A DNA stretch of 21,415 bases from a virus. Lineage: Duplodnaviria; Heunggongvirae; Uroviricota; Caudoviricetes. The DNA lies in the IMG/VR virus record IMGVR_UViG_2737471822_000004, positions 1 to 21,415 of that record; one strand, 5' to 3'. Shown piece by piece: positions 1,571 through 21,415 of the stretch (positions are counted from its first letter, which is position 1; each line of letters begins with the position of its first letter). Made by a program: the position numbers and the translations under genes. The notes under the pieces are model-generated. The model searched no databases. It was not told the origin of the DNA and saw nothing but the letters and a program-made list of their open reading frames with translations.

Positions 1571-1604
1571 AACGCCTCTATAAGATTCTCTTTTTATCTA
1601 CAAC

Positions 1605-1610
1605 ATTATA
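1605..1610 (-). promoter_or_regulatory. Possible -10 hexamer (TATAAT on minus strand) for the cargo operon
   Basis: Perfect TATAAT about 35 nt upstream of the 282-aa start codon. The region is AT-rich, so a chance match is plausible. Confidence 0.25.
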
Positions 1611-2004: not shown

Positions 2005-2034
2005 GTGTTAAAAATCCCGGTACTCGACCGGGAT
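2005..2034 (-). terminator. Rho-independent terminator after the sid-psu-delta operon
   Basis: Perfect 8-bp stem ATCCCGGT / ACCGGGAT (2014-2021 and 2027-2034) with a 5-nt loop. On the minus strand it is followed by UUUUAACACC. Lies about 20 nt downstream of the delta stop. Confidence 0.7.
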
Positions 2035-2054
2035 TACGTGGGCGTTTTTTCTAA

Positions 2055-2884: not shown

Positions 2885-3624
2885 ACTGCTTTCTCCTTCT
2901 CAGCAAGTTCCTGACGAACCTTAATTTTATGCATAGCTGCCGGAGAGAGTTGATTACTGAAATCCAGACGCGCCGCATAATCCGGGGCAATTCCCGCCAG
3001 TTTAAACACCGGGTCCTGTTCAGGCATCGCATCGTTAGCCAGAGCCGGTCTGGTGATATGTTTATGAATAAAGTCTTTCAGCACTGTGTCCGGGTCATTA
3101 ACTGAATTCACCACACCCACAACGGCACTGGCTTCCCGGCCCATTGTGGATTTAAGCAGGCTCAGCGTCTGAATAAGCGCTTTTCCATGCGACTGCATAA
3201 AATCTTCCCAGATTTGTTTTGCACGAATATCCACAAGAATATTATGCGCGTGGATATACTTTCCGGCTAATTCTGCAGCTTTCTGCGGCAAAAGTGCATT
3301 TTCGCTTTCCTGAGCCGCCAGCAGCTCATCAAAATCCTCAAGCGTTTCTCGTCCCAGCGCAATTTCCGTGCGCAGTTTTTTCATTTCCTTTGAGACCACG
3401 CCCTGACTTTCACGAAACAGCGTGCGCCACTCCTCATTCAGTGTGTTCGTCGTGGCTTCCATTTCAGCGCGACGCTGGCGGATTGTCGCAATATTATCCG
3501 CTGCCGCTTTCTGCTGACGACGTGCTTCAAGCCATGCGTTTCTGGCTGTGTTCATGGTTTCCAGTGCCCGCTGCGTTACAGCCGGAAAAGTGGAAAGGTT
3601 GTTATTCACTGCGGTGTTGTTCAT
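2881..3624 (-). CDS. sid: Sid-like external scaffold / capsid size determination protein (247 aa)
   Basis: First gene of the late operon, immediately downstream of tandem TGT-N12-ACA dyads. Size close to P4 Sid, helical Ala/Glu-rich sequence. AGGAG 6 nt upstream of ATG. Confidence 0.65.
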   Translation of the reverse strand: MNNTAVNNNLSTFPAVTQRALETMNTARNAWLEARRQQKAAADNIATIRQRRAEMEATTNTLNEEWRTLFRESQGVVSKEMKKLRTEIALGRETLEDFDELLAAQESENALLPQKAAELAGKYIHAHNILVDIRAKQIWEDFMQSHGKALIQTLSLLKSTMGREASAVVGVVNSVNDPDTVLKDFIHKHITRPALANDAMPEQDPVFKLAGIAPDYAARLDFSNQLSPAAMHKIKVRQELAEKEKAV

Positions 3625-3658
3625 GACTTCTCCTGTCGGGTTGGTTCGTTACGTCAAT

Positions 3659-3714
3659 TGTGTCGTGGCTGACACAAGCACACTATCGGTGATCAGTGTG
3701 TGGTGGCTGGCACA
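3659..3714 (-). promoter_or_regulatory. Late promoter region with two TGT-N12-ACA dyads (Ogr/Delta-type activator binding sites)
   Basis: TGTgtcgtggctgacACA at 3659-3676 and TGTgtggtggctggcACA at 3697-3714, centres 38 bp apart, about 45 and 80 nt upstream of the sid ATG. Confidence 0.6.
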
Positions 3715-3802
3715 ACGGGCGCTTGCGGTTATTCAGACGTGGCTATGAAAGCCAGCCAGATAAAAATGCCCTCTGTTTCAGTCTGCTTTATGTCCCTGAT
3801 GC

Positions 3803-3991
3803 GGTGGAACAGGTGAAACATGTGTTACTGCTTTGTTTTATAAAGTATTTATATACACTGCACCGGTGGAACATCGCGGGTAACAAGGTGGAACAGCGGA
3901 TTGGCTGGCGTTACATCTGTTCCACCTCACTATTTCAGAAGGTGAAACAGGTTCAGCCCTTGTAAAATACGGTTGTTCCACCTGTTTCACC
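3803..3991. repeat. Iteron cluster: 8 copies of 9-mer GGTG(G/A)AACA in both orientations, candidate alpha-binding origin/crr
   Basis: Copies at 3803, 3812, 3866, 3887, 3941 (forward) and 3919, 3974, 3983 (inverted, TGTT(C/T)CACC). Outer pairs form an 18-bp inverted repeat. Located between the alpha stop and the sid promoter. Confidence 0.7.
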
Positions 3992-4025
3992 TGTTACCCT
4001 TAATAAATAAGACTCACGCAAAGCC

Positions 4026-6698: not shown

Positions 6699-7078
6699 AC
6701 TTCCCCCTCATACAACGTCACACCGGTACTGCAGAAGTCATCAAAGGCCGCCGGAAGCGTGCGGTACATCTCCGCCATCACTTCACAGCCGCGCGCGGTC
6801 AGTACCGGCGGCGCGGTCAGCAGTGACGGCTCCAGCATGTCAGTCAGCAGTGCCAGCGCGGCAGCGGCGCCCTGCACTTCGCCGTACTCGTTAATCAGTA
6901 CGCACTCGATATGCAGCGCAATGGCCATTTCAATACGCTCCACTGTCAGGCTGTGCGGACCATACTGATCACTGCCAGTTTCGTTCAGCATTTTCTGCCG
7001 CCATGCTGAAGCAATAGCCCGCCGGTAAAGCGCGGTGGTCATTTCTACCGGGAAAATGGAAACCTGCGGCTGGTTCAT
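6695..7078 (-). CDS. Hypothetical protein (127 aa), immediately upstream of alpha
   Basis: ORF with ATGA stop/start overlaps on both sides. Position is analogous to the small genes preceding alpha in P4 (orf151/epsilon region). No motif recognised. Confidence 0.55.
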   Translation of the reverse strand: MNQPQVSIFPVEMTTALYRRAIASAWRQKMLNETGSDQYGPHSLTVERIEMAIALHIECVLINEYGEVQGAAAALALLTDMLEPSLLTAPPVLTARGCEVMAEMYRTLPAAFDDFCSTGVTLYEGEV

Positions 7079-7359
7079 CTGGCACCTCCTTCAATCAGTG
7101 CGCAGCTGTGTGCAATATCCGTCAAATCTGCCAGCAGGTACTCCATCAGCGCGGCGACACCAGGCGCACAGCCTGCGTCCAGTGCTCCGGCCTGAGACGG
7201 GTATTCAGAAAAGAGAAGCTGGAGCATGTCGCAGGCATTTCTTGCGCGGGTCAGCTTTCCGAAACTGTCCTCTGACAACCCATAGGCAAAAGCACCGGTA
7301 TTGTGTTTTTCAGGCAAAGTGTGGCCCTGAGCACCGTTGAGCCCGTTTGAAATATTCAT
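7075..7359 (-). CDS. Hypothetical protein (94 aa)
   Basis: GGAG 10 nt upstream of ATG. Stop overlaps the next start. Epsilon-like by position and size only. Confidence 0.5.
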   Translation of the reverse strand: MNISNGLNGAQGHTLPEKHNTGAFAYGLSEDSFGKLTRARNACDMLQLLFSEYPSQAGALDAGCAPGVAALMEYLLADLTDIAHSCALIEGGAR

Positions 7360-7390
7360 CGTGAATTACTCCGTTTTCAGCGGTATTTTG

Positions 7391-7750
7391 TCAGAGAAAC
7401 TTTGAATAGTGACCGTCGTCAGGCTCAGCAGAACGCCGTATGGTACGCTCCCGCCAGCGGATAAATAGCACAGACGGATGCAGTGTCAGCGGGCCGGAAC
7501 CACTACTGCCTGCAGGAGCTGGTGCAGGCTTAAAGAGCGGTACATCAAACAGGCGCGTATACCGCTGTTCAAACCATGCCAGAGGGCAGGAAGAAAGCTG
7601 GTTGTCGCTGTCATGACGTATCAGCACTTCACAGCTGAATTCAGGATTAACCAGCGCCACAGAGGGCGAGGCTTCTATTAATCGGATAATCGTGACCGTC
7701 CAGCCACGTTCATGCTGCCAGCGTTCGCCGGGGTGCGGATAATTACGCAT
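7391..7750 (-). CDS. Hypothetical protein (119 aa from the RBS-supported ATG; the ORF extends to 7780)
   Basis: GGAGGTG 5 nt upstream of the ATG at 7750. Overlaps the end of the upstream small ORF by 8 nt. Confidence 0.5.
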   Translation of the reverse strand: MRNYPHPGERWQHERGWTVTIIRLIEASPSVALVNPEFSCEVLIRHDSDNQLSSCPLAWFEQRYTRLFDVPLFKPAPAPAGSSGSGPLTLHPSVLFIRWRERTIRRSAEPDDGHYSKFL

Positions 7751-7919
7751 GTTCACCTCCGCAGGGAATGCGCCCGGCAAAGCTCAGTACATAGTCCGGG
7801 GCAAGTCTGCGCCGCGCTGATCGTTCGTTATCTGCGGTGATCCTTAACATCACAGGACGGGCATTGCGTTGACTGCGGTTGATCGCCGCAAATAACCAGG
7901 TACACTTCTGTTTAGCCAT
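7743..7919 (-). CDS. Hypothetical small protein (58 aa), first gene of the replication operon
   Basis: GAGGT 8 nt upstream of the ATG at 7919. The longer 76-aa ORF lacks an RBS at its first ATG. Confidence 0.4.
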   Translation of the reverse strand: MAKQKCTWLFAAINRSQRNARPVMLRITADNERSARRRLAPDYVLSFAGRIPCGGEHA

Positions 7920-8003
7920 CTTCGTTACCTCATATAACGTGCTGGTCAGACGCCTCGGTGCTGCTGCAAACACTCCGGGGCGTTGCTATTTTGTTTTTCT
8001 GTG

Positions 8004-8047
8004 TGTAATGTGTCATTACACATAAATACATTACAATGGGTGTAATT
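8004..8047. promoter_or_regulatory. Divergent promoter/operator region with GTAATG-type palindromes
   Basis: TGTAATG-tgt-CATTACA perfect palindrome at 8004-8020, further CATTACA (8029-8035) and TGTAATT (8041-8047) half-sites overlapping the start of the plus-strand regulator gene. Confidence 0.45.
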
Positions 8048-8230
8048 GACGTGTCAACACACAAAAATGAAAGACGTGGGAATCCGCCATTCCAGTTCCG
8101 ACTTGACCCTGAACTGCGTGAACTGATGGAACAAGCACAACAGCAGGATGGCGATGAATCGCTAGCGGCTTGGATCAAGCGCATTCTACGCAAAGAGTTA
8201 CAAAGCCGAGGTTTAGAACCAAAGAATTGA
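8036..8230 (+). CDS. Small ribbon-helix-helix-like transcriptional regulator (64 aa), the only plus-strand gene in the satellite
   Basis: PFQFRLDPELRELMEQ... fits the beta-strand then helix pattern of Arc/CopG/ParD-type RHH proteins. Divergent from the replication operon. No clear SD at the first ATG; the GTG at 8051 is an alternative start. Confidence 0.5.
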   Translation: MGVIDVSTHKNERRGNPPFQFRLDPELRELMEQAQQQDGDESLAAWIKRILRKELQSRGLEPKN

Positions 8231-8240
8231 TTAATACGTT

Positions 8241-8263
8241 GGGGAGGCTTTTTTCTCCCCAGC
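8241..8263. terminator. Hairpin between the converging RHH gene and alpA (possible bidirectional terminator)
   Basis: GGGGAG / CTCCCC stem with a T-rich loop. No strong U-tract on either side, so function is uncertain. Confidence 0.3.
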
Positions 8264-8279
8264 TTTGTTAATATTGTCA

Positions 8280-8495
8280 TTACACTACTTCCTCCAATCC
8301 TGCTGATTGAGCTTTAACCCACTGCCTAATTTCTTGTGCATCGTAAACAGATACCCGTTTTGAAATGCGTATAGATTTGGGAAATTCAGGATTGTTCTTT
8401 TCCCAGCGCCAGAGAGTAACCGTACTTATTTGCAAAAAGTCAGCAGTAGCTCGTGGGCGGGCATGTCCAGTGATAGGATAAGTTTTTAATGTCAT
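8280..8495 (-). CDS. alpA: AlpA-family HTH regulator (71 aa)
   Basis: FLQISTVTLWRWEKNNPEFPKSIRISKRVSVYDAQEIRQWV matches the AlpA/Xis-type winged-helix pattern. Typical position between the integrase and the primase operon. Confidence 0.8.
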   Translation of the reverse strand: MTLKTYPITGHARPRATADFLQISTVTLWRWEKNNPEFPKSIRISKRVSVYDAQEIRQWVKAQSAGLEEVV

Positions 8496-8503
8496 GAAAT
8501 TAC

Positions 8504-8531
8504 CTGCCGTATTATGTAATGAACACGGCAG
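8504..8531 (-). promoter_or_regulatory. Stem-loop in the alpA 5' leader
   Basis: 7-bp stem CTGCCGT / ACGGCAG with a 14-nt loop that contains a GTAATG motif, ending 8 nt upstream of the alpA ATG. Confidence 0.3.
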
Positions 8532-8773
8532 ATACTATGGGGATATCAAAATGCTGTGAAGGTAGTGTAATCAACTCTACCTGTAGATTGTTTCAGTCTA
8601 CCCCTTTTGTTTTAATCCCGCATGATTAACCGCTAATCGTAATTTTCTTAAGATTTCTTGTTCATTAGTGATAAATATTGGAGGTAGCTCTCCTAAATGT
8701 TTAATTATGGCGTTAGTCCACTTTTCAGGACTTATCTCTTTTCTTTCACCACGACATTCGCTTGGGTATTTTG

Positions 8774-9481
8774 CTAATATATATATATGGCTGCATTTAA
8801 TAACCCCTCCCTATTTTTTGCATGATGCTCAGCAGTGTTATTTAATCGCTTGGGGATTTTAGGTTCAGATGAAATTCTTTTCGTAAGTAAACTTGGCATA
8901 GGAATTCCAGTTTTTACTGATTTCCATATTAACTCTAAATCTCTTCGCATGATAAGAAGATCTTCAAATGGAATCTCAATGACCTTATTTCCTTCATATG
9001 AGGCCGTTGCCATCAAAACATTATCTCGTATTTTTACCGGTTTAAGCCTGAATTCATAATCTGGATCTATAGCTAATCCATTTTTTATGTCACTTATCAT
9101 ATCATCGGCGTACCAAATACCACAGGCAAATCCTATAATTTGAAGCCCATTTTCAAAATGTTCAAAGGAATCATCTTTAAGGTCATACCATATTGTTGAA
9201 AATTCCATCTCTAGTGATTGATTAGTTAATACGGGATGAATTAAGTCAATTTCCATTTTCTGATTTTTATTGAGGAAATTAACATTAAATCTAACTGCAA
9301 GTCCATCCGCCTTGAATGCGATATTAAAAGCGCCTATTTCGTATAGATGTAATAAATCATCAATCTCGCATTCTAATAGTCTTGAAGCGCGTTCAAATGA
9401 ACAATATTCTAATGGTGGTATTTTTTTGTCAATCCATAGATTTCCTAAGAATATAGTTTCATTCTCTGTTGAATGCTGCAT
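8774..9481 (-). CDS. Hypothetical protein (235 aa), AT-rich cargo gene between integrase and alpA
   Basis: Long ORF with GAGG 7 nt upstream of ATG, 30 nt downstream of the integrase stop. Lower GC than neighbours. No motif recognised. Confidence 0.6.
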   Translation of the reverse strand: MQHSTENETIFLGNLWIDKKIPPLEYCSFERASRLLECEIDDLLHLYEIGAFNIAFKADGLAVRFNVNFLNKNQKMEIDLIHPVLTNQSLEMEFSTIWYDLKDDSFEHFENGLQIIGFACGIWYADDMISDIKNGLAIDPDYEFRLKPVKIRDNVLMATASYEGNKVIEIPFEDLLIMRRDLELIWKSVKTGIPMPSLLTKRISSEPKIPKRLNNTAEHHAKNREGLLNAAIYIY

Positions 9482-9511
9482 TATGACCTCTGTTTTAAAT
9501 TATAAGAGTAT

Positions 9512-10846
9512 TTAATTGATAATGTTAATACCTGATAAGTCATAAGGAGCATGGAATTCGTCCTTATTTAGTTCCAGATAATTAGACCACCATTGCATCA
9601 TTCTGCGGCGTTCCTGCATGTGCTGCGCAAGATGCACATATGCTGCCCGCACTTCGTTTCTTTCTTGGTGACTCATCTGCCGTTCAACTGCATCGCGTGA
9701 CCAGAGTCCTGATTCGGTCAGTGCAGAGCAGGCCATCGCCCTGAACCCATGCAAGCAAACATCAGTTTGAGTGTCGTAACCCATCGTTCGCAGTGCTTTA
9801 TTAACTGTGTTTTCGCTCATCGGTTTATATGGGTTGCTGTCACCGGGAAAAACCAGCAGATATTCACCACTGATTTTCCTTATATCCTCCAGTACCCCGA
9901 TAGCCTGACTAGATAGCGGGACATAATGAGCAGCCCCCATCTTTGCACCCCGATCTGAGAATTTAACCCCTGCGATCTCTTCACGTTGTCCTGGTATCGT
10001 CCATAGCCCATTTTCAATGTCGATCTCCTCCCATCTGGCATGTCGTAGTTCGCTGGATCGCACAAAAGTGTGCAGGGAAAAGAGAACTGCTAGGCGAGTC
10101 AATGGTCTTCCCGTGTAACTTCTCGTTTTCGCTAACAGTTCAGGTAAACGTTCGAGAGGTAGTGCGGGGCGATGTCGTACTTTGGGGGCCGTAATTGCAC
10201 CTTTTAGATCGTGGGCAGGGTTGTAATCGACAATTCCACGTTGCACGGCATAACGGAAGATGCTCGTCATAGTGGTTTTTACACGGCTCGTTGTGGCACC
10301 AATTCCTTTCTCAGTCATCTCAACCAGCATCGGCATCAAGTCACGGGTTTTGAGCGTATCGATAGGCTTTGAACCGATGGCAGGAAAGAGGTGGTTTTCC
10401 ATTTCTCGGAGAATTTTTTTACGGGTGATCTCTTTCCACTCAGGATGCCCCATCGTTCCACTATGCCACTCTCTGGCAACACTCTCGAACGTGGGGGAAA
10501 TTGGGTCTTCCTTTTTGGGTTTCTTTGCTTCGCGAGGATCACGACCATCGGCTAGTAGTTGCCTGGCTTCATCACGCCGTTTCCGCGCTGTTGCAAGTGA
10601 GACATCTGGGTAGACCCCTAATGCTAATGTCACTTGTTTTCCATCAAAACGATAATTCATACGCCAGTATTTTCCACCAGTCTTTCGTACCAGTAGATAC
10701 AAACTCCCTCCATCGGTAAGTTTGTAATCATTGGTCTTCGGCTTGGCGTTTTCTATCTGTTTGGGGGAAAGCACATTAATGGCCATATCTGTACTCATTT
10801 TGGTAAATTGATGGTATCTGCATATCGAACTGGGGAATACCATCAC
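9512..10846 (-). CDS. Tyrosine recombinase, P4-family integrase (int1); probable true start at 10786 or 10798
   Basis: N-terminal arm-binding domain (KLTDGGSLYLLVRKTGGKYWRMNYRF...VTLALGVYPDVSLATARKRRDEAR) and C-terminal catalytic region (HGFRA...RAAYVH...RRRMMQWW). The canonical N-terminus begins at MAINVLSPK. Confidence 0.9.
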   Translation of the reverse strand: MMVFPSSICRYHQFTKMSTDMAINVLSPKQIENAKPKTNDYKLTDGGSLYLLVRKTGGKYWRMNYRFDGKQVTLALGVYPDVSLATARKRRDEARQLLADGRDPREAKKPKKEDPISPTFESVAREWHSGTMGHPEWKEITRKKILREMENHLFPAIGSKPIDTLKTRDLMPMLVEMTEKGIGATTSRVKTTMTSIFRYAVQRGIVDYNPAHDLKGAITAPKVRHRPALPLERLPELLAKTRSYTGRPLTRLAVLFSLHTFVRSSELRHARWEEIDIENGLWTIPGQREEIAGVKFSDRGAKMGAAHYVPLSSQAIGVLEDIRKISGEYLLVFPGDSNPYKPMSENTVNKALRTMGYDTQTDVCLHGFRAMACSALTESGLWSRDAVERQMSHQERNEVRAAYVHLAQHMQERRRMMQWWSNYLELNKDEFHAPYDLSGINIIN

Positions 10847-11057
10847 TTATACCATCACGAGGTTGTAATGTCATGAAATTAACTGAAATGAAAATCAGGC
10901 CGATTCGGTGATAACTTACTGTTTTTTTAAGTGGTTATGTAATGAAGTGAAATGTAGAGAAAGGTCTTTAAAGTGTCCCTGCAGACATCTACTTGAGGCG
11001 GCAGGGGGTTGATTAGAATGGTGTTTTTTAGATTTGAGAAATATTTTACCCGCTATT
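10847..11057. other. Inter-element junction: candidate att site region, duplicated alpA start segment, and direct repeats
   Basis: Contains a second copy of the 16-mer TAATGTCATGAAATTA that overlaps the alpA start codon (10866-10881 versus 8487-8502), a tRNA 3'-end-like GTGTCCCTGCAG (10963-10974), and a TATTTTACCC direct repeat at 11042-11063. Confidence 0.35.
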
Positions 11058-11258
11058 TTACCCATTCGCGCGGCTTAAGAGCTTATTTTTGAATTCACAA
11101 TGGTCACGATATAACCATCTTGCTCGTCCGTGGATAACTTTGGCTTTAGGCAGGTCGCCGGACTTAATCCGGTCATAGATGAAGGTTTTACCAAAGCCAG
11201 TATCAGCCATGATGAATTTCAAATCAACCAGTGAATCAGGTTGTAGTTCGTGTTGCAT
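11058..11258 (-). CDS. torI: TorI-like excisionase / recombination directionality factor (66 aa, AlpA/Xis-type winged helix)
   Basis: 66-aa protein MQHELQPDSLVDLKFIMADTGFGKTFIYDRIKSGDLPKAKVIHGRARW... with an HTH_17-like pattern. I recall this as the E. coli KplE1 TorI sequence. GGAGA upstream of ATG. Lies at the prophage end opposite the IntS-like integrase. Confidence 0.65.
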   Translation of the reverse strand: MQHELQPDSLVDLKFIMADTGFGKTFIYDRIKSGDLPKAKVIHGRARWLYRDHCEFKNKLLSRANG

Positions 11259-11300
11259 GAGTGCTATCTCCGAATAGGGAATCGAACCTGCAAATCAGGC

Positions 11301-11323
11301 AATAAAAAACCGCATTGATGCGG
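11301..11323 (-). terminator. Rho-independent terminator at the end of the early operon
   Basis: Minus-strand hairpin CCGCA-ucaa-UGCGG followed by UUUUUUAUU, between the 114-aa gene and the torI-like gene. Confidence 0.6.
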
Positions 11324-11382
11324 CAATGGTAGGTCTGGATATCTTGAGAAATGAACGGGCCTCATCGAGTGTGAGGCTGTGG

Positions 11383-11727
11383 TTAGTCCTTGCGTAACTC
11401 GCTAATTCTTCTGTAAGTCTCTGGTGCTTTGTTTCCGTGTATCTTCATTTCAGACTTCAACAGAGCAACGAGAGAATCCCATTCGTTGAGGATGCCTTTG
11501 AATGCCGGAACGCGCTTTGCAACCTTGTCGAATGAATCCCTGATTTCTGGAATCTGCTCGACAAGCGCAACGCATCGCCGGAAGTCGGCTACGTCATGTG
11601 GAGCGCCGAAGTGATGACCATAGATATTCTTTTTCAGTCCACATGCGATTGAGGCAAGAGTTGCGCTACTGATGCCAACATCGCCAGTCGATTGCCATTT
11701 CAAAACCTTCATAGCCAAATCTGACAT
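11383..11727 (-). CDS. Hypothetical prophage protein (114 aa)
   Basis: ORF co-oriented with the early operon. No motif recognised. Confidence 0.5.
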   Translation of the reverse strand: MSDLAMKVLKWQSTGDVGISSATLASIACGLKKNIYGHHFGAPHDVADFRRCVALVEQIPEIRDSFDKVAKRVPAFKGILNEWDSLVALLKSEMKIHGNKAPETYRRISELRKD

Positions 11728-11799
11728 TTCTTGTCTCCATAAAACAAAACTCGCCGTAGCGAGTTCAGATAAAAGAAATCCCCGCGAGTGCGAGGATTG

Positions 11800-12084
11800 T
11801 TATTCATTGCCGATATTCACCTTTATCGCGAACACCTTTACCGGTTTATCGCCGAAGTGCGGATGTGTGATTGTCTTGATTTCATATCCGTCATACGGGA
11901 CGTCAATTCTGCGGCTGGAATCGTCGCGCTTCGGATATCCCTTTGTGATAATCAGGCGGTCATGCTTACGGTTAACGAGGCGCTTTTTCCAGTAGTCATT
12001 ACACAAGCGATACTCTTCCGTTTTCTCCCCGCGAATCATGGCATCGAAGTATTCACCTTTGACGGCAAGTTGCAGGTTAGCCAT
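11800..12084 (-). CDS. ASCH/DUF3850-like small protein (94 aa from the ATG at 12084)
   Basis: MANLQLAVKGEYFDAMIRGEKTEEYR resembles the N-terminal pattern of ASCH/DUF3850 proteins. GGAGGTG 7 nt upstream. TAATG stop/start overlap with the upstream gene. Confidence 0.55.
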   Translation of the reverse strand: MANLQLAVKGEYFDAMIRGEKTEEYRLCNDYWKKRLVNRKHDRLIITKGYPKRDDSSRRIDVPYDGYEIKTITHPHFGDKPVKVFAIKVNIGNE

Positions 12085-12344
12085 TACCGCACCTCCAGTT
12101 TCCATACCGCCTGACCAATCCGGCTGGCATAGGTATCTTTGGATACTGCTCCGTCTTTAGCCAGCTCCATAAGAATTTTGCGCAAATCTGCCGAACGCCA
12201 TTCTTCATCAGGAAATTCCTTCTCCATTGCCAACCGCAGATTCCAGGTTGCTATCGTGAATGGATATTCCCCGCCGAGAGCTTTCTCTTGCAGGGCAGAA
12301 CGGGAACGCATCACCTGCAAAACCTTCTCTTTTACATCCATCAT
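12084..12344 (-). CDS. Hypothetical prophage protein (86 aa)
   Basis: ORF translationally coupled to both neighbours (4-nt overlap with the DUF551 gene, 1-nt overlap with the ASCH-like gene). Confidence 0.5.
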   Translation of the reverse strand: MMDVKEKVLQVMRSRSALQEKALGGEYPFTIATWNLRLAMEKEFPDEEWRSADLRKILMELAKDGAVSKDTYASRIGQAVWKLEVR

Positions 12345-13342
12345 TTTGCCTCCTGCGGCGGTTCTGGTAGTGGCATCCAGTGTGTGACATTGCTAATCAG
12401 ACCATATTCATTAGTTTGAGGATGGTTGCCGTTATCGTCTCCGTATTTAAGACTCTCCATAAAACCATAATGCTTATTCCCATTAACGCTCACAAAGCCG
12501 TAATAAGCAGGTATAACGCCGATCTCACACGTAACCAGCAAAGGAAAACCAGTTCTCCAGTTTAGTTCACCGATTTCAGGCATTCGATCACTACAGCTTA
12601 TCCAACTATCCGGAGTTACCGGAGAGTTGCCCGATAGCGCGTTCTGCAGTCGCTCCAGCTTCACGTATTCCTGAACCCTGTTTCCGTCGCATGCCTGAAG
12701 CCATTGCGCAGCCTTTTGCGCATCAGTGTGAAAGGCACAAGTGCGACCGTCATCAAATTGCATTTCGTAGAGGTCAGCAACTTGTTCAAACTGCGTGTGT
12801 TGTGACTTGTAAGTTTGGCTTACAGGTTCGGCTTCCAGTTCTGCTATGCGCTTCTCTGTGGATTCCAGCGCTGCAACCAATTCGTCTACAGTTCCGGCAG
12901 CTTGCAGTGCGTAATCGGTAATAGCCATCTCATGATCAATTTCAGTACCGTTCTCATTCGTTGAGGTGATAGCAAAATAATCAGAGTCGATTTCGTTATC
13001 AGCTAAGTGGCGTAGCGTATCGGCAACAAGCTGGCCGTTTTCGATTAGCAGCCTCCCAACCGTAAGCGCAATATCCTCGTTCTCCTGGTCGCGGCGTTTT
13101 ATGTATTGCTGGTTTCTTTCCCGTTCATCCAGCAGCGCCAGCACGGTTTCTGGTCCGGTCAGAAATTTGAAGGCGTTGAGCGCATCAATATCCACACCGT
13201 AATCTTTAAGTTCCTGTTCACTTAACAAATCATCATCAGCTGGCAACATTAACAGGCGTTCCATTGCTGGAATTGCACGTTCCGCCGCCTCACGCAGTGC
13301 CTGGTAATTAATTTCGCTCACTGGTTGCCTCCTTTGCGCCAC
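12341..13342 (-). CDS. DUF551-domain phage protein (333 aa), Ea22-like early-region protein
   Basis: C-terminal [10 protein letters not shown]...LLVTCE...YYGF...[12 protein letters not shown] matches the DUF551 pattern common in lambdoid early-left operons. Acidic N-terminal region. Confidence 0.65.
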
Positions 13343-13501
13343 ATCGCATTCAGATATTTGTTTTGATTCACTGATGGAAAAGAATTTCTCTTAAGCAATT
13401 CCTCTCTCGATGGCATTGGCTTTACGCGTTGGCGAATAATCATTTCCGCCGGAAGAATTCCGGGATTGTATGCAAGTCCTCTCATGGTAAATTCCTCTTT
13501 G

Positions 13502-13816
13502 TTAATTTATTCGTATGCCTGTTCTCTCTTCATCGAGTTTTTTTAGCTTGTATCGCATAGCTCTTACTGAATAAATTGAGCGGCAGGTTGCAATTGCTAT
13601 TTCTTCTGCGGAGAACTTACCGAAAAGTGATACTTCGGCTCTTGTCCATCGTCTTCCACGAAGTCGGCTAACAATGTCAGCGCCAATCCTTGTTGCTTTC
13701 GCCATTACTGCTTTTTCAGTCCTTTCCAGTTTTTCAGCGATAACTTCAACTGGCATTGTCGCCGCCACTTCGCGCAAGAAATCGACTTCCCATTTCTCCC
13801 ATGGAGTCTTTTTCAT
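13502..13816 (-). CDS. Hypothetical prophage protein (104 aa)
   Basis: ORF in operon context. Basic C-terminus. No firm family. Confidence 0.45.
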
Positions 13817-13827
13817 AGGCGATACCG

Positions 13828-14316
13828 TTATTTGATAAGAAGTGAAGGTTTCCCAACTTTGAGTTGAGCGCCGGGGATATTTATTCCTGCTTTTAGTTGG
13901 TGCTTGATTGCCAACTTGTCGGCTTTAATTGTCGTTTCGAACTCAACGTATTCAGGAGGAAGGGCGCTTGAGTCGATGATTTCTACAATTTCTGACGGTT
14001 TGCGGATTGTTACCTGGTGAATACCTGCTCGAATATTTTTCTTGCCAACCATTTCAAGCGATGACGCTATATATGATTTGATGCTGTCAATCTTATTTTG
14101 AATTACTGCGGCTCGCTCATTCAGTGACTTTGCCTCTTCCTTGAGGCGTTCAGCATAAGCAGATTCATTTTTAATGACGGAAAGAAGTTGCTCTATTTTA
14201 TCGGTAAATTCTCCTTCCATGCCTTCTATTGTGTCAGCAATCATCTCTGGTTCTAAATCTGAATCCATCAATTTTGCGTATTCATTGGCAATTTCATACA
14301 GTTTGCTCACTGGCAA
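13828..14316 (-). CDS. Sipho_Gp157-like protein (162 aa), frequent partner of RecT/Erf recombinases
   Basis: Coiled-coil N-terminus and C-terminal ...IKADKLAIKHQLKAGINIPGAQL... pattern. Start overlaps the 3' end of recT. Confidence 0.5.
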   Translation of the reverse strand: MPVSKLYEIANEYAKLMDSDLEPEMIADTIEGMEGEFTDKIEQLLSVIKNESAYAERLKEEAKSLNERAAVIQNKIDSIKSYIASSLEMVGKKNIRAGIHQVTIRKPSEIVEIIDSSALPPEYVEFETTIKADKLAIKHQLKAGINIPGAQLKVGKPSLLIK

Positions 14317-15205
14317 CCTCCAGTTTCGCTTTGCATTCTATGTAAATGGCTTGTACGTTCTGCTGTAATTTCATTCCAGATGTCAGGCGATATGCTTCTG
14401 CAAAATATCGCTTCAAATCATCCATGTTTTCTGCCTGAGCCATTTCATCGCAAAGAAGTTGTACTTTATCCATTATTTCCTGCTGGCGTTTCCGTTCATC
14501 TTCGCGGATATCTTCCTCTGATTTGTGCGGCATAACTGGTTCAGTCCACACACCTTCTTCTTCGTTTAGTACGTGAATAGCACTATCAAGACGTGATGCC
14601 TTAGGCCAATACTTGCTTGCACGCTTTACGACCGTCTTTCGCGCCATCTCATTCCAGTGATTTACCCATGGTCCTTTATCGCTGAATGCCGCCTTGCTTG
14701 TTTTCCTTACAGCCTCAATTTCAGCCAGACTCATCTCTTCCGTTAGATAATCACCTGCTGGCGTCTTAACTGTGCAGTAAACGCCAACGATATCACCGCG
14801 ATCACCGAAGGCGTTGTATTTATGGGTTGGTGCTTTATCAAGCCCGTTTGACTCATAGGTATCGTTAGCATGAACAAGTTTTGCCTGACCCCATGAGATA
14901 ACACCAGACTCCATTGCAATATGGAGCAACCCCATATAACTGATATCAAGGCACACCATGCCGTCGCGCGGAACCAGATAAGCCAGTTTGCTAGCCGGGT
15001 TTAAGGTGATGCCGATCGCCGCAACATTGATGATGGCGTTCTGTGCGCTGGTTGGATTTGCCAGTGCCGTTTTAGCCAGGTAATCGTTTTTCTGGAAATA
15101 CTGAATTGCAAACTGGCTTTCCTTAGCCCATGTCACCGTCTGTTCAGTCAATGCTCCGCAGAATAACTGCTCCTGCTGTTTAACGAATTCAACGATATTG
15201 CTCAT
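14294..15205 (-). CDS. recT: RecT-family single-strand annealing recombinase (303 aa)
   Basis: GPWVNHWNEMARKTVVKRASKYWP matches the conserved RecT motif (Rac RecT: GPWVTHWEEMAKKTAIRRLFKYLP). Family-level call. Confidence 0.8.
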   Translation of the reverse strand: MSNIVEFVKQQEQLFCGALTEQTVTWAKESQFAIQYFQKNDYLAKTALANPTSAQNAIINVAAIGITLNPASKLAYLVPRDGMVCLDISYMGLLHIAMESGVISWGQAKLVHANDTYESNGLDKAPTHKYNAFGDRGDIVGVYCTVKTPAGDYLTEEMSLAEIEAVRKTSKAAFSDKGPWVNHWNEMARKTVVKRASKYWPKASRLDSAIHVLNEEEGVWTEPVMPHKSEEDIREDERKRQQEIMDKVQLLCDEMAQAENMDDLKRYFAEAYRLTSGMKLQQNVQAIYIECKAKLEVASEQTV

Positions 15206-15513
15206 GCTGCTTCTCCAAAAATGTGTCTGCGCTTGAATATTGCGAAGGCATATTCAGCCTTAACTCTTTCGGTTATTGCATCCCAGAACCATTCAGCGGC
15301 TTTTTCCTGATAGTTACAGTCATCATCTTCCAGCCAGTCGATAGCGTCCTTAGTGTGTTCATCTGGTTTATATGAGCGAAGCATTTCGCTTATTGGGTCG
15401 CAACGTTTGCAGAGGCGATCAACTTCACTGTTGATTCGTTCGTAATCTTCATCAGTAAAACTTGCGATTATTTGCGATATTTCACGCTTATCATTCAGAG
15501 TCAGAATCATCAT
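15202..15513 (-). CDS. Hypothetical prophage protein (103 aa)
   Basis: ORF with 4-nt overlap to recT. Acidic. No motif recognised. Confidence 0.5.
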   Translation of the reverse strand: MMILTLNDKREISQIIASFTDEDYERINSEVDRLCKRCDPISEMLRSYKPDEHTKDAIDWLEDDDCNYQEKAAEWFWDAITERVKAEYAFAIFKRRHIFGEAA

Positions 15514-15598
15514 CTTTCTCCTGTTCTTTGTGCTGATTGAGCATTTTGTTCATCTGACGAATGAATTCTTCGTCTGACCAGTTATCCGTAAAACTCAT
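15491..15598 (-). CDS. Possible small ORF (35 aa, acidic C-terminus)
   Basis: Below the ORF-track cutoff. Its ATG overlaps the stop of the upstream 56-aa ORF (ATGA) and its 3' end overlaps the 103-aa start. Supported only by coupling geometry. Confidence 0.25.
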   Translation of the reverse strand: MSFTDNWSDEEFIRQMNKMLNQHKEQEKDDDSDSE

Positions 15599-15765
15599 GG
15601 ACGGCCTTGTTGTTTCAAAATATCCCAAAGCTTTTCGAGCAAACTTTTCATTCTTGGTTGTTTAAAGTCTGCTCCGGTTAAAATATTTTTTCGTGAATGC
15701 TGTACCGATAAAATCGGGTTGAAAGGGCGAACCGATGCCGCCCCTGCAATAGCGAACTGTTGCAT
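15595..15765 (-). CDS. Possible small protein (56 aa), leader gene of the early operon
   Basis: AAGGAG 6 nt upstream of the ATG at 15765. The longer 91-aa frame has no RBS at its first ATG. Confidence 0.3.
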   Translation of the reverse strand: MQQFAIAGAASVRPFNPILSVQHSRKNILTGADFKQPRMKSLLEKLWDILKQQGRP

Positions 15766-15825
15766 AGGATGCTCCTTCTGTTTGATTGCATAACGAAAAC
15801 GCCTCGAGTGAAGCGTTATTGGTAT

Positions 15826-15855
15826 GCATATAAAAAGGCCCTCACACTGGAGGGC
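15826..15855 (-). terminator. Rho-independent terminator downstream of the 108/141-aa gene
   Basis: Minus-strand hairpin GCCCTC-cagugu-GAGGGC followed by CUUUUUAUAU. Confidence 0.6.
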
Positions 15856-15961
15856 AAAGAAGACTTCCAATAATCAGAACAAGTCGGCTCCTGTTTAGTT
15901 ACGAGCGACATTGCTCCGTGTATTCACTCGTTGGAATGAATACACAGTGCTTATTCGCAGC

Positions 15962-16288
15962 CTACATAATCATTCCGGTTATTATTACCATTTCAATATC
16001 ACTATCTTTCATAATGATTGGAGTTGAGTTATCAACTTTACTTTTACTCCATTTTCCTGCATCAGTTTTTAACGCTCCACAATAAGAAAGCCAATCATCA
16101 TCACAATGTTCTGGAACACTAATTCTGACAAGAACACGTGATAGTGCTTTTTCGATACTTTCATCACAATTAGCATTTGTGTAATTGCCGTGAGACAATT
16201 TCAAATCGTTAACTTCATCTTCATTGGCATCAAAAATATAGATTTCAGTCGACTCTGGAACATTTTCATAAACCATTAAAACTTTCAT
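15962..16288 (-). CDS. Hypothetical protein (108 aa from the ATG at 16288; the ORF is open to 16387)
   Basis: GGGG 5 nt upstream of the internal ATG (MKVLMVYEN...). Own terminator downstream. AT-rich. Confidence 0.45.
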   Translation of the reverse strand: MKVLMVYENVPESTEIYIFDANEDEVNDLKLSHGNYTNANCDESIEKALSRVLVRISVPEHCDDDWLSYCGALKTDAGKWSKSKVDNSTPIIMKDSDIEMVIITGMIM

Positions 16289-16392
16289 TTTTACCCCATA
16301 TTGTTTATGCCAAAAATAAAGGCCACCATCAGGCAGCCTTTTTGTAAATGTTGCAGGTATCAAGTAAGTAATTAGATGGAGCGCCATAAATT

Positions 16393-18099
16393 ATGAATTC
16401 ATCGTTTGTCGGGTCCATCTCCATCTCTTGGCCTATTGCCATTCTTGCGTCAGTGTCATCAGAGGCGAAGCATAAAACAGCCCCCGTCACCATCCCAGGA
16501 GACATCATTATCGATGCTTCTACTGGAGAATTTACCTTCAATGGCATTGATTATATTTTCCATCCGCTTGGCGCAAAATCAGTAGAGATTATCGGCGGTA
16601 AGTTCACCGCAAATGCATACCACACCCAGCGTCCTCAGGTAATTTTCAATGATTACCCTGATGGGCTGGAGAATTTACCAACGCGCGTGGTGATAAAAGA
16701 TATGCAATGCTTTAACTGCGGTGTTGGCTACATCATGGTTAACTGCCAGGACCCAACAAGCATCCACGTTACGGTTGATAACAACTACTGTAAGACTGAT
16801 GACAACACTGACCAGTATATCTCTGATGCGGGTATGTCAGGTGGGCAGGGTGAGGTATACCCATATCTGATGATTCTTGGTAATACGACAGAATCCGTCG
16901 ATATTGGAACGCCTCGCAAGTCAATGTTCCATGTGACCAATAATACCTTTGATGTTTTTATGCAGAGTGGTCCTAATGCAGATTTGGGTAAAGTTGGTGG
17001 TACTACGATAGGCGGCAATGTTAACGGCAATCTTTTCTGCAACAGGAATACGGAATGTGCATGCGAATTTGACACTTTTACTGGTGGTCTTGAAGTATCT
17101 TTAACATCAAACCGTTTTGTTAACACTGCCATTAAAATGATGTCAATGCAATTTGATAGCAGCACTCGCGTCGGATTAGGTGGTAGATCTTCAATATCGA
17201 ATAACGTATTTCATTTTGAAGAAAATCCGTTAAATGACTTTGCAATATTCTTACGGACATCACTTGTTAGCATATCTAATAATGTTTTTTATTACAAAGG
17301 TGCGAGCATTCCATCAGATCAGAGGATATTTAACTTTATAGCATCACAGGCGCTCAACAATAGTAACAATGGTTTCAACGGAACATGGTGCGCAGGTATT
17401 AGTATCACCGGTAACACAATGCAAATGGTGTTAGACCCTGCCGTAAACACGTCTCTAAGATTGCAATGTATTAACCCGACTGATATGTCAGGAGCGGTTA
17501 TATCGGGTAATTTTATGGCGGGCGGAGTAGGAATGGTGCTTAACGCCAGACCAGAAAGAAACAGAAACGTATGGACAGGTAACTTCATTACGTCAGGGTT
17601 ATTTACGGCAGAAGATATCTGGCGAATGAACTCAGCTTTTGTAGGTTCAGGGAACTACATCGGCAATGGTTATGATAATACGGTTAATGGCATAGCAATG
17701 TTGAGCAAGACTATACCCGCGGTATCAGATGGTTCAAAGATAAGAATTACTCTTGACCAGCAGATATTAACCGGGGCTGCATCTGACCGCTCACTTTACC
17801 TTCTCCACATAAAAGTAACCGGTGGGGTAAAAAACAACTACGCTACATATATCATGTCTTCTGGTGCGCATGACGCAACAGCAAGAGCCGACGCAACTGA
17901 CCTTAAACCCCCTATTGACCAGCGTTTAAACCCAGGAGATACTTCCATTGCAAACCTGCAAAGTTGCTTTAAAGCCGGATACAATGGAAGTGGGTATATT
18001 GTGCTTGAGGCCCTTTCAACATTCAGCGCGGCAAATCAGCCACCAACAAAAATTGAATATGCAATAGTACCATTATCAACAAACTTCCCAACGCTGTAA
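16393..18099 (+). CDS. Parallel beta-helix protein, probable phage tailspike / receptor-binding depolymerase (568 aa)
   Basis: Repetitive Gly/Asn/Thr-rich sequence with recurring ISNNVF / ITGN / ISGNF motifs typical of right-handed beta-helix tailspikes. Adjacent to an O-antigen acyltransferase. No recognisable P22-type head-binding N-terminus. Confidence 0.55.
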   Translation: MNSSFVGSISISWPIAILASVSSEAKHKTAPVTIPGDIIIDASTGEFTFNGIDYIFHPLGAKSVEIIGGKFTANAYHTQRPQVIFNDYPDGLENLPTRVVIKDMQCFNCGVGYIMVNCQDPTSIHVTVDNNYCKTDDNTDQYISDAGMSGGQGEVYPYLMILGNTTESVDIGTPRKSMFHVTNNTFDVFMQSGPNADLGKVGGTTIGGNVNGNLFCNRNTECACEFDTFTGGLEVSLTSNRFVNTAIKMMSMQFDSSTRVGLGGRSSISNNVFHFEENPLNDFAIFLRTSLVSISNNVFYYKGASIPSDQRIFNFIASQALNNSNNGFNGTWCAGISITGNTMQMVLDPAVNTSLRLQCINPTDMSGAVISGNFMAGGVGMVLNARPERNRNVWTGNFITSGLFTAEDIWRMNSAFVGSGNYIGNGYDNTVNGIAMLSKTIPAVSDGSKIRITLDQQILTGAASDRSLYLLHIKVTGGVKNNYATYIMSSGAHDATARADATDLKPPIDQRLNPGDTSIANLQSCFKAGYNGSGYIVLEALSTFSAANQPPTKIEYAIVPLSTNFPTL

Positions 18100-18102
18100 A
18101 TT

Positions 18103-18138
18103 TGTGCGCACTATGAAAAAGTTAAATAGTGCGCACAA
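18103..18138. terminator. Bidirectional terminator between the converging tailspike-like and acyltransferase genes
   Basis: About 10-bp stem built on the self-complementary GTGCGCAC (18104-18111 and 18130-18137), followed on the plus strand by TTATTTATATTA. Confidence 0.55.
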
Positions 18139-18147
18139 TTATTTATA

Positions 18148-20103
18148 TTATATATCGATAATTATATTTCCAAACCCTTCAATTGCCTTTCTTGCTCCAT
18201 ATCTTGATAGATGATACTCATCAGAATACATAACGTCACCTTTGTCAGATACTAGGTTACATCTCCCATTCCTACACATGAAATCATAAGGGTTTATAAA
18301 CTTTATACTTCCGTTATCTGATAGCCATTTGTTTAAATAATTATTGCTATCTAACCTATCACCGCTTTCTGTACTGAAAATACTATCAATGCATTTCTTT
18401 TCAACATATGAAGGGCGACTCACACAAGAAAGACCACCGTCAGAGCCTATTGCTGCCGGGTGGCTTCCAATAACAATTACTTCCTGATTTGTGTACTCTT
18501 GAATATTTTTAATAACGGATGCATTGAATTTCATATAATCATTATTCCCGTTGAACTTATAAATGTTACCATCTTTATCAGATAACATTTCAATGTATCT
18601 AAGCCATGACTGAGCATAAACAAGTGGTATCTTATTATTTTTCGAGTAATCTATCGCTTTGGTTCCAATCTTCACGCCATATACAGAAATCTTGCCTTTT
18701 TCTGTAACGTAAACGCTATTTGATAGATACGCTCCATCAGCGAAGAATGCAACAGCTGATATATTTTTCTTTGCAAGAAACTCACTCATGGCTAATGAAT
18801 ATTGTCTTGCATAACTATCTCCCATGAAGACAAATGATGGTTTTTGTGTTTTATCTCCAAGAACTACCATTTCACCTTGCTTAACCCCAAAGCCTCCGAA
18901 TAAATATTCTTTAAATCCAGGCTTGAGCATTTCCATGTTTTCTTTATAATTTTGTATTCTAAATGCAAATCCGTTGTCTTTTATTGAAGATGAATACGAA
19001 ATCATAACCAATATAGTTAATGATAAAAACAATACTGATTTGTAGCAAAACTCATTTATTTTTATCTTTCTGAATTTATTTTCTATTGCGTTGTACATTA
19101 AGAATCCAACAGCCAGCGAAGATAAAATCAATGATGCTTTCTCGATATCATTTAACTCTCTATATATCCAGTATTTGTAAAACACAATAATAGGCCAGTG
19201 AATTAGATAAACTGAATACGATATCAGGCCTATCGTAACGCTGACCCTGTTATTCACAGCGAAGCCAGCGTATTTTGCATCATGTGAAAGAATGCAAAGC
19301 ATGGCACCCAATACGGGAATCATGGCATGCAAACCAGGGAACTGAGTTGATGATGAGTAAAGCAACGCAGATGATACTATCATCGCAAGTCCCGCAGCCA
19401 TCATAGACTCCTTCATTAGTTCAGATGGTTTTATCCATCGAGAAATGAAGAATGCGAGTCCGCCGAAAGACAACTCAAAAACCCTGAACGGCATCCAGTA
19501 GTATGCTTCAGTTTGCATGTTTATAGTTGCCCACTGAGAGGATGCCAGAGAAGCAATACTAATAATAACCAGAACCCATGGCACAAGGCTCTTTTTTACT
19601 AAATATGCTACTCCGATAATCAGAGGCCATACAAGATAGAACTGCTGTTCAACACCAAGGGACCATGTGTGCAACAATGGATTTATTTCTGATGATGTAT
19701 CGAAATAACCAACGCTTTGTGCAAAAAATATATTTGATGCTGAATACAACGCATATATTGCTGATTTAGATACACTAACAAAATCAGAAGGTGAGTACAG
19801 AATAAAGCACCCAGCAAAAACGGCGATCAGCGTTGCTATAAGAGCCGGGTACAGTCTTGCTATCCTGGCGAACATGAAATTAATGTAACTGAAAGTTCCC
19901 TTCTCAGTTTGATTAAAAATTATTCCAGTTATCAGATAACCAGAAATAACAAAAAATACATCAACGCCAACAAACCCTCCGGGAACACCACTGAACCCTA
20001 CATGGAATATAAGAACTAAAATGACGGCAACAGCACGGAGTCCATCAACTCCTGGCTGGTAATTTTTAGACAATGTTTTGTCAGTCTTCAAAAGAAAGCT
20101 CAT
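18148..20103 (-). CDS. Acyltransferase-3 family O-antigen acyltransferase with C-terminal SGNH domain (OafA/Oac-like, 651 aa)
   Basis: N-terminal GLRAVAVILVLIFH...GGFVGVDVFFVISGYLITG acyltransferase_3 signature, multiple TM segments, and C-terminal FVFMGDSYARQY (GDS motif). AT-rich. Confidence 0.85.
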   Translation of the reverse strand: MSFLLKTDKTLSKNYQPGVDGLRAVAVILVLIFHVGFSGVPGGFVGVDVFFVISGYLITGIIFNQTEKGTFSYINFMFARIARLYPALIATLIAVFAGCFILYSPSDFVSVSKSAIYALYSASNIFFAQSVGYFDTSSEINPLLHTWSLGVEQQFYLVWPLIIGVAYLVKKSLVPWVLVIISIASLASSQWATINMQTEAYYWMPFRVFELSFGGLAFFISRWIKPSELMKESMMAAGLAMIVSSALLYSSSTQFPGLHAMIPVLGAMLCILSHDAKYAGFAVNNRVSVTIGLISYSVYLIHWPIIVFYKYWIYRELNDIEKASLILSSLAVGFLMYNAIENKFRKIKINEFCYKSVLFLSLTILVMISYSSSIKDNGFAFRIQNYKENMEMLKPGFKEYLFGGFGVKQGEMVVLGDKTQKPSFVFMGDSYARQYSLAMSEFLAKKNISAVAFFADGAYLSNSVYVTEKGKISVYGVKIGTKAIDYSKNNKIPLVYAQSWLRYIEMLSDKDGNIYKFNGNNDYMKFNASVIKNIQEYTNQEVIVIGSHPAAIGSDGGLSCVSRPSYVEKKCIDSIFSTESGDRLDSNNYLNKWLSDNGSIKFINPYDFMCRNGRCNLVSDKGDVMYSDEYHLSRYGARKAIEGFGNIIIDI

Positions 20104-20257
20104 TATTCATCCGTATTCATTCTTTTTTGCTGTGCTGATATTAGCACTGACATCGCCACCGATCGACTTTTGAAGTGGTAACTAGGCGAAAACGGGATAC
20201 ACAAAGCTTTGCACTTGATTGCAAGGCGTTGTGCTCTTCGATAGTGGTTAAGGTGGA

Positions 20258-21415
20258 TCACTCTGGCTTTTCATCAAGCCAGTCCGCCCACCATTGCATC
20301 ATTTCTCTGCGCTTATCGAGATACTGAGCATGGTTGTAAATTCCACGTACAGATCCGCCGTTGGCATGTGCCAGTTGCACTTCAATGGCGTCGGCAGGCC
20401 ATTCGTGCTCGTTCATAATCGTGCTGAATTCATGCCTGAATCCGTGACCGCTTTCCAGACCCTCATAGCCGATTTGTTTGATCACAAGCAGTACCGCGTT
20501 CTCGCAGATTGGCTTCTTCTTATCGTTGCGCCCGGCAAAAACAAACTCTGATACTGGTTTGGTGATTGAGCTTAGCGTAGTGAGAAGTTCAACCACCTGG
20601 TCTGACATCGGGACCACATGAATTTTGCGTCCCTTCATCACACTGGCGTCGATGGTGATAATCCTGTTTTCAAAATCTACGTTCTTCCATTGCATGGAAC
20701 GAAGCTCTTTCGTTCTTAGGGCTGTGTAGCGTAAAACTTTGGTCGCAATGAGCGATACGATACTTCCTGAAAATGTTGCAAGTGCTTTGTTGAATGCCGT
20801 GATCTGGTCGGCAGGTAAAAACGGGAAGTTCTTCTTGCGGTATCCCTTCATGGCGTCAGCAAGGTCAGGTGCCGGGTTATATTTAGCCCTACCAGTAACA
20901 ATAGCGTAGCGGAAAACCTCGCCGCATCTTCTGCGGGCTTTGTTGGCTCGCTCCATTGCACCGCGATCTTCAAATCTGCGGATTACTTCCAGCAGTTGCA
21001 TCGGCTCAATATCCTGAATTTCAAGGCCGCCGATGATGGGTAAAATGTCGTCATCAAACATTTTGGCAAGTTCAGTTGCATAGCCTACTGACCAGACTTG
21101 CTTCTTGTGCTCGTACCATTCCTTGTAAATCGCACTAAAGGAATTGTTGTTAGACGAAGCCTTTTTCGCCTTTACCGGATCGATGCCAACCGAGATGTCT
21201 TTCCTCGCAGTCCATGCCTTATCCCTTGCCTCCTGCAAAGTCATTAGCGGATATTTTCCTACGGTCAGGATTTTCTCCTTACCGTCAATCTTGTAGCGAA
21301 GCTGCCATACCTTTTTCCCGGATACAGGGACATAAAGGTACAGGCCATTACCATCGAGAAGGCGGTATGGTTTTTCTTTCGGCTTTGCTGCTTCAATCTG
21401 CTTAACGGTGAGCAT
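20258..21415 (-). CDS. intS: IntS-like tyrosine integrase (385 aa); ATG sits exactly at the window edge
   Basis: MLTVKQIEAAKPKEKPYRLLDGNGLYLYVPVSGKKVWQLRYK... N-terminus and C-terminal HGFRHEF...GIYNHAQYLDKRREMMQWW catalytic region. Recalled as near-identical to E. coli K-12 IntS (CPS-53/KplE1). Upstream region and att are outside the window. Confidence 0.85.
   Translation of the reverse strand: MLTVKQIEAAKPKEKPYRLLDGNGLYLYVPVSGKKVWQLRYKIDGKEKILTVGKYPLMTLQEARDKAWTARKDISVGIDPVKAKKASSNNNSFSAIYKEWYEHKKQVWSVGYATELAKMFDDDILPIIGGLEIQDIEPMQLLEVIRRFEDRGAMERANKARRRCGEVFRYAIVTGRAKYNPAPDLADAMKGYRKKNFPFLPADQITAFNKALATFSGSIVSLIATKVLRYTALRTKELRSMQWKNVDFENRIITIDASVMKGRKIHVVPMSDQVVELLTTLSSITKPVSEFVFAGRNDKKKPICENAVLLVIKQIGYEGLESGHGFRHEFSTIMNEHEWPADAIEVQLAHANGGSVRGIYNHAQYLDKRREMMQWWADWLDEKPE

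Follow-up and report, generated by a model that had tools for sequence, protein, structure and literature searches.

The question raised by this locus is why an open reading frame (ORF) of 568 codons, whose product has the beta-helical character of a phage tailspike, should begin with a hydrophobic segment and not with a head-binding domain. The window, which is the whole stretch of 21,415 nt that was analysed, is the argW locus of E. coli, occupied first by a P4-like satellite (1-10984) and then by the remnant of a defective, P22-like prophage (10985-21415; ~10.6 kb). The ORF (16393-18099, plus strand) starts at an ATG and lies within the prophage remnant. It is best understood as a tailspike gene that has been truncated at its 5' end, with the loss of codons 1-178, and it does not represent a new class of receptor-binding protein, a reading to which we assign a probability of roughly 0.88.

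The ORF consists of two parts of different origin. In a nucleotide search, its nt 1-99/101 were 95-97% identical to sequence in 54 lambdoid phage records and about 400 E. coli genomes, and none of these records gave a further match to the ORF beyond that point. Nucleotides 84-1707 matched solely tailspike genes, including gp01 of phage swi2 (730 aa; 95.8% nucleotide identity over ORF nt 84-1700) and the genes for 718-aa 'phage head-binding domain-containing proteins' in three E. coli prophages (86.7-88.7% over nt 84-1707). In phage HK106, the left match sits beneath gp42, which is small and conserved, lies between N and cIII, and is annotated on the opposite strand; this gene belongs to the family phrog_2471 (HK106 gp42/VT2-Sakai Sap20-like). 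Codons 1-28 of the ORF (MNSSFVGSISISWPIAILASVSSEAKHK; 16393-16476, plus strand) are the antisense of the 3' part of this lambdoid early-left gene, and codons 29-568 together with the stop codon (16477-18099, plus strand) correspond to codons 179-718 of the 718-aa P22-type tailspike, or to 191-730 in the numbering of the swi2 tailspike. The junction was mapped by three-way alignments of the window with the left parent (HK106 and E. coli CFSAN064035) and the right parent (the tailspikes of E. coli E62 and swi2). It lies at 16476-16483, within an 8-bp microhomology (AACAGCCC) that is common to both parents; an imperfect match continues from there to 16491. The tailspike frame is preserved across it, K28/T29 of the ORF being equivalent to V178/T179 of the 718-aa protein, and the ORF aligns to positions 153-691 of the 694 positions of the PHROG profile phrog_29018.

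The odd hydrophobic start of the protein is nothing other than in-frame translation of a neighbouring gene's opposite strand. Its hydrophobic stretch spans residues 5-23, with a mean Kyte-Doolittle value of 1.5-1.8, and S-E-A comes next; there is no K or R ahead of this stretch, and K26 and K28 lie directly behind it. Residues 1-25 have pLDDT values below 50 in the AF2 model. Complements of acidic, hydrophilic coding stretches tend to encode hydrophobic residues, and the character of the leader is likely due to its being the complement of just such a stretch (...DDTDARMAIGQEMEMDPTNDEF...). The ATG is a fortuitous start, with GGAG at 16378-16381, 11 nt upstream of it, and some NCBI records begin the ORF at a GTG 20 codons further on. 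Because the tailspike frame is open backwards through the 28 antisense codons as far as the ATG, gene callers report a 'phage tail protein' of 568 aa, or of 548 aa when the GTG is chosen.

A second chimeric ORF crosses the junction on the minus strand (16329-16547; 72 aa). Its first ~17 codons are antisense tailspike, and the rest is a 5'-truncated remnant of the phrog_2471 (Sap20-like) gene (16329-16483, minus strand), of which the C-terminal 55 residues survive; residues 18-72 match positions 29-83 of the 83 in the PHROG profile. A terminator-like hairpin (16341-16318) follows this ORF. As the tailspike gene and the phrog_2471 gene are each without a 5' end, two truncated genes abut head to head.

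The extent of the loss can be gauged from intact prophages at the same site in two complete genomes. The prophage of E62 runs torI ... cI ... capsid ... ejection proteins and then, in order, Arc, the 718-aa tailspike, the acyltransferase, intS and argW. The window and CFSAN064035 share 98.4% identity as far as 16491, past which the latter carries N, the repressor (cI), replication genes, nin, Q, and the lysis, terminase, portal, capsid, needle, ejection and tailspike genes before intS and argW; this extra segment puts the DNA missing from the window at about 31 kb, as measured on CFSAN064035. The simplest history, we infer, is a single deletion of ~31 kb by illegitimate recombination, in which a crossover within the microhomology AACAGCCC would have joined the early-left gene between N and cIII to the tailspike at codon 178/179. 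The exact progenitor was not found among the genomes compared, E62 and CFSAN064035 each fitting one side only: E62 shares the right side but differs in its early-left region (Erf instead of RecT), and CFSAN064035 shares the left side, its tailspike being different and the acyltransferase absent. Phage Kapi1, an argW-integrating, seroconverting P22-like phage (PMC8787464), was considered as a source and was absent among the matches listed for the tailspike.

A Pfam search found no domain in the ORF, and a PDB sequence search returned noise only (E ≥ 0.46), so there is no solved relative detectable by sequence; structural matches of the receptor-binding module share only 9-18% identity. In the AF2 model, most of the beta-helix (~16480-17592) and of the C-terminal domain, a beta-sandwich (~17700-18075), is confident, and the fold is the right-handed parallel beta-helix of the receptor-binding domain of P22-type tailspikes. 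The first-pass annotation had described a beta-helix protein without the canonical head-binding N-terminus, and this was borne out: structure prediction gave a beta-helix and not some other fold, the relatives were phage tailspikes and not a host surface protein, and neither PF09008 nor an equivalent anchor was present, the homologous region being deleted in the alignment. The first of its three options, an 'N-terminally truncated or rearranged tailspike', was right, in the form of a truncation, codons 1-178 having been deleted and the rest fused to an antisense gene; the rearranged variant is rejected. A tblastn search of the six frames of the window for the missing 178/190 N-terminal residues found no coding sequence for them (best E = 2.0), and the head-binding domain has therefore been deleted, and not frame-shifted or relocated.

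The loss goes beyond the head-binding domain. Among 20 aligned homologues (39-92% identity), the N-terminal parts are mutually unrelated (Head_binding PF09008, Tail_spike_N PF18668, and other long extensions), and the receptor-binding module is found with no fewer than three kinds of N-terminal anchor; the proteins range from 577 to 990 aa. The module common to these homologues begins ~40-50 aa upstream of the breakpoint in the window, which falls between ...MPYGTVQDAIKWVVPEVFPGSNASEKLQAAVNYAVANKTRVVASGVYDV and TAPVTIPG..., and the shortest natural homologues (577-596 aa) retain the cap-helix segment that is deleted here. This segment holds the invariant residues Q157, A159 and G174 as well as seven nearly invariant positions. 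In the AF2 model of a full-length homologue (P0002), the 178 lost residues include the head-binding strands (30-103), a helical linker (111-127), and an amphipathic helix (152-166) with strands 169-171 and 175-178 (pLDDT 84-90); the helix and its adjoining strands make up the cap and first rungs at the N-terminal end of the beta-helix. Uncapped ends of beta-helix proteins tend towards aggregation. The deletion took the head-binding domain, the linker, the cap helix, and the first rungs together.

It also removed pL and N, the late operon, and the immI region, and with them every promoter known for a P22-type tailspike and all of the virion genes. The ORF is now antisense to the early-left remnant, its left neighbours being early-left genes on the opposite strand and not a late or morphogenesis operon, and no head, tail, lysis or other morphogenesis genes were found in the window by Pfam and PHROG searches. 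With no head-binding domain and no virion genes, the product cannot act as a tailspike or other virion component. A promoter and terminator scan of 15500-18400 revealed nothing convincing upstream of the ATG on the plus strand, and sigma-70-like sites in the same region were not above chance (10 versus 9.2 +/- 3.0 in shuffled sequence). The ORF is most likely an unexpressed remnant or, if its product is made, a misfolding one, which would presumably lack function. A counter-point is that the 540 tailspike codons are still open, and a read-through transcript could possibly be translated, given the GGAG 11 nt before the ATG.

Whether the open frame reflects selection was considered from the carriers. 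Public databases list the exact 568-aa sequence under the name 'phage tail protein [Escherichia coli]' (EIP9468186.1, for example). At least 23 contigs carry it, drawn from NCBI and Logan SRA assemblies and from ENA gut metagenomes, and its neighbours are the same in every case; the truncated form was present in 0 of 5,426 complete E. coli genomes. For ten carrier loci that were retrieved, identity to the window is 99.56-99.99% across as much as 15 kb. Carriers this similar represent a recent clone, so the intact frame is uninformative on selection. In a comparison with five full-length copies, 18 nucleotide changes are private to the window (10 synonymous, 8 non-synonymous), with no obvious neutral decay, a count that is itself uninformative on selection after the deletion because the carriers are nearly identical and several of the changes are shared with other homologues (mosaicism). 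The element probably persists because of the neighbours of the ORF, namely an intact acyltransferase conversion gene and the intS/torI module.

The alternative that survives best, although we consider it improbable, is that the fragment was domesticated as a free O-antigen depolymerase, a possibility raised in the first-pass annotation. It would be expressed by the host and act in the cytoplasm or envelope on O-antigen or its precursors, for example by trimming the host's own O-antigen or interfering with superinfecting phages, and the antisense leader would serve as anchor or export signal. N-terminally shortened tailspikes of P22, Sf6, and HK620 are active enzymes in vitro, but these constructs keep the cap, and here the cap helix and first rungs, with their invariant residues, are gone from an otherwise confidently modelled beta-helix and C-terminal domain. 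The intact frame and upstream GGAG would permit translation, yet the promoter signal did not exceed chance. The hydrophobic residues 5-23 and following S-E-A could pass for a targeting signal, but they are poorly modelled (pLDDT <50), and the lack of a basic residue before the stretch, with two lysines after it, would by the positive-inside rule argue against export of the C-terminal part. The ORF adjoins an intact O-antigen acyltransferase, but that gene is already split in one carrier, the near-identical carriers give no sign of selection, and PADLOC returned no match. The proposal is accordingly left unsupported.

Less probable again, and in our view a distinct long shot, is that the fusion created a new gene, the antisense-derived leader anchoring a cap-less beta-helix at the envelope as a host protein that binds or cleaves O-antigen. 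If true, the N-terminus would have arisen de novo from the antisense of another gene, and the protein might, for example, remodel the host's own acetylated O-antigen or else decoy or exclude O-antigen-specific phages. That the ORF encodes a genuine tailspike with an unusual N-terminus docking onto another tail protein, as was also suggested at first, can safely be set aside: the module does occur naturally behind several anchors (PF09008, PF18668, and others; 577-990 aa), but the 28 N-terminal residues are the antisense strand of an unrelated gene and so not a protein domain, all natural variants, including those of 577-596 aa, retain the cap-helix segment, and the element is without tail, head, and lysis genes. 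Misassembly, by which a chimeric contig would join two unrelated prophage regions, is just as negligible, for although the junction falls between mosaic phage sequences common to many genomes, a typical spot for such errors, each flank is collinear with what is expected at argW, and at least 23 contigs from independent NCBI, Logan SRA, and ENA sources share this junction and its surroundings exactly, which means that it is real and inherited.

Around the truncated tailspike gene, the remnant retains genes from both ends of the prophage. On the left is the surviving distal part of the early-left operon (11058-16387, minus strand), severed from pL and N by the deletion and recognised by Pfam and PHROG matches. 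It comprises torI/xis (11058-11258; excisionase family phrog_66, and torI in the near-identical region of CFSAN064035), Ead/Ea22-DUF551 (12341-13342), Gam-like (13828-14316), and RecT (14294-15205) genes, along with small ORFs that reach 15962-16288/16387. On the right, also on the minus strand, are an intact acyltransferase of 651 aa with AT3 and SGNH domains (18148-20103; PF01757 and PF19040) and an IntS-type tyrosine integrase of 385 aa (20258-21415; Pfam integrase domains, with intS/tRNA-Arg annotated in E62 and CFSAN064035). The tRNA-Arg gene argW lies ~160 nt past intS and the end of the window, as seen in carrier contigs that reach past the window, L005 among them, and continue as argW-yfdC-mlaA-fadL, so that the integrase stands beside the 3' end of argW and the TorI-type excisionase at the opposite end of the element. 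Immunity, replication, lysis, and morphogenesis modules were all absent from 10985-21415 in the Pfam and PHROG searches.

The boundary between remnant and satellite is marked by an attR-type copy of the argW 3' end/KplE1 core (10973-10984; GTGTCCC-TGCAG), one C short of the 16-nt core, which in KplE1 reads CTGCAGGGGACACCAT (PMC2951348). Beyond the end of the window, L005 alone showed the right copy of the core. The 100%-identity match to strains that carry the satellite only stops within their tRNA-Arg, at 10984. Excision may be affected by the missing C. The argW 3' end also appears split: the core runs to 10984, and the 16 nt that come after it in the tRNA (GGAATCGAACCTGCAA) turn up again at 11278-11293; the 293 bp between the two parts hold torI. 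This arrangement suggests insertion of the torI module into a longer att segment homologous to the tRNA, or recombination within such a segment.

The acyltransferase is likely an O-antigen-modifying, lysogenic-conversion gene that travels with the tailspike module, and the same 651-aa protein follows a full-length tailspike in E62 and in two further loci (L016, L017). Related seroconverting phages carry their conversion genes near int-att-xis, as the acyltransferase is here (PMC8787464). In one carrier (L006; SRR18481751), the region 11756-13704, corresponding to 18148-20103 of the window, encodes the acyltransferase as two ORFs (417 and 158 aa) with a 7-nt difference in length, a sign that the conversion gene may still be decaying in some members of the clone. 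In L017 and L018, from E. coli and one genome labelled Citrobacter freundii, this tailspike, with or without the acyltransferase cassette, ends P22-like prophages beside the tor genes (torT/torR/torS side); presence of the cassette at both the argW and tor sites indicates that it moves between prophages with different integration sites. Some full-length relatives of the tailspike module (P0015 and P0021; 946-959 aa) bear an extra C-terminal SGNH/GDSL esterase domain. The esterase domain in some relatives, and the AT3-SGNH acyltransferase after prophage copies of the tailspike, are hints that the acetylation status of O-antigen matters for this receptor-binding module.

The satellite, in tandem with the prophage remnant at argW, looks complete, with int (9512-10846), an AlpA-like gene (8280-8495), a DUF927/Toprim primase (4026-6698), two Psu-family genes (2881-3624 and 2333-2884), and Ogr/Delta (2055-2336). 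It is 100% identical to copies that directly abut tRNA-Arg in several E. coli genomes, and in E62 and CFSAN064035 a P22-like prophage and a satellite likewise stand in tandem at argW. Three cargo ORFs on the minus strand (234, 282, and 235 aa; 1-705, 722-1570, and 8774-9481) matched nothing in Pfam or PADLOC. The first two are distal to ogr/delta, where P4-like satellites reportedly carry variable anti-phage systems, and they may be regarded as possible, uncharacterised defence candidates.

Both the protein and the kind of event described here are already known, and the value of the locus is mainly for annotation. The deposited 'phage tail protein' of 568 or 548 aa is a pseudogene-like fragment with a spurious N-terminus, best filed as a tailspike pseudogene or fragment, since it has the fold of a tailspike and lacks both the head-binding domain and the genomic context. 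The deletion junction illustrates how plausible-looking chimeric ORFs can arise on both strands, and the locus provides a base-resolved example of a P22-like prophage at argW collapsing to a ~10 kb remnant of intS, torI, and a conversion gene, in parallel with KplE1. The uncharacterised receptor-binding module is mildly novel and could be of use to catalogues of O-antigen-specific depolymerases, and full-length phage copies are better suited to its study.

KplE1/CPS-53 of E. coli K-12 occupies the same site at the 3' end of argW and has the same recombination module, with intS and torI at opposite ends. Its borders are formed by the CTGCAG...ACCAT core, and it is, like the remnant here, without repressor, replication, lysis, and morphogenesis genes. 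Both also keep O-antigen-modifying cargo and tail-gene fragments next to intS, these being gtr genes and tail-fibre fragments in K-12, the counterparts here being the AT3-SGNH acyltransferase and the tailspike fragment. KplE1 has been described as a defective prophage at argW with a 16-nt core and no repressor, with an IntS/TorI module common to HK620, Sf6, and CUS-3, and its size of 10.2 kb compares with ~10.6 kb here (PMC2951348). The remnant differs from KplE1 in being an independent decay event with another breakpoint, in the attR core that is one C short, and in the P4-like satellite in tandem.

Compared with the tailspikes of P22 (gp9), Sf6, and HK620, which consist of PF09008 and a beta-helix, the copy in the window is without residues 1-178, that is, the head-binding domain, linker, cap, and first rungs. 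Laboratory constructs without the head-binding domain (P22 TSP delta-N 109-666, HK620 111-710, and Sf6 109-623) fold, trimerise, and cleave O-antigen free of the virion; those were cut at the domain boundary, with the whole beta-helix kept, whereas the deletion here lies ~40-50 residues inside the conserved module and puts 28 unrelated residues in its place. Among sequenced phages, swi2 gp01 (730 aa; 'head-binding domain-containing protein' or 'tail fibers protein') has the copy of the receptor-binding module nearest to that of the window; unlike the window ORF, it is full length and part of a complete phage genome, of the genus Swiduovirus; the literature on swi2 was found to contain passing mentions only and no receptor information. 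A 730-aa relative (P0001), 95% identical over the shared part, has a Tail_spike_N-type N-terminus (PF18668), and illustrates that this receptor-binding module moves between different tail architectures.
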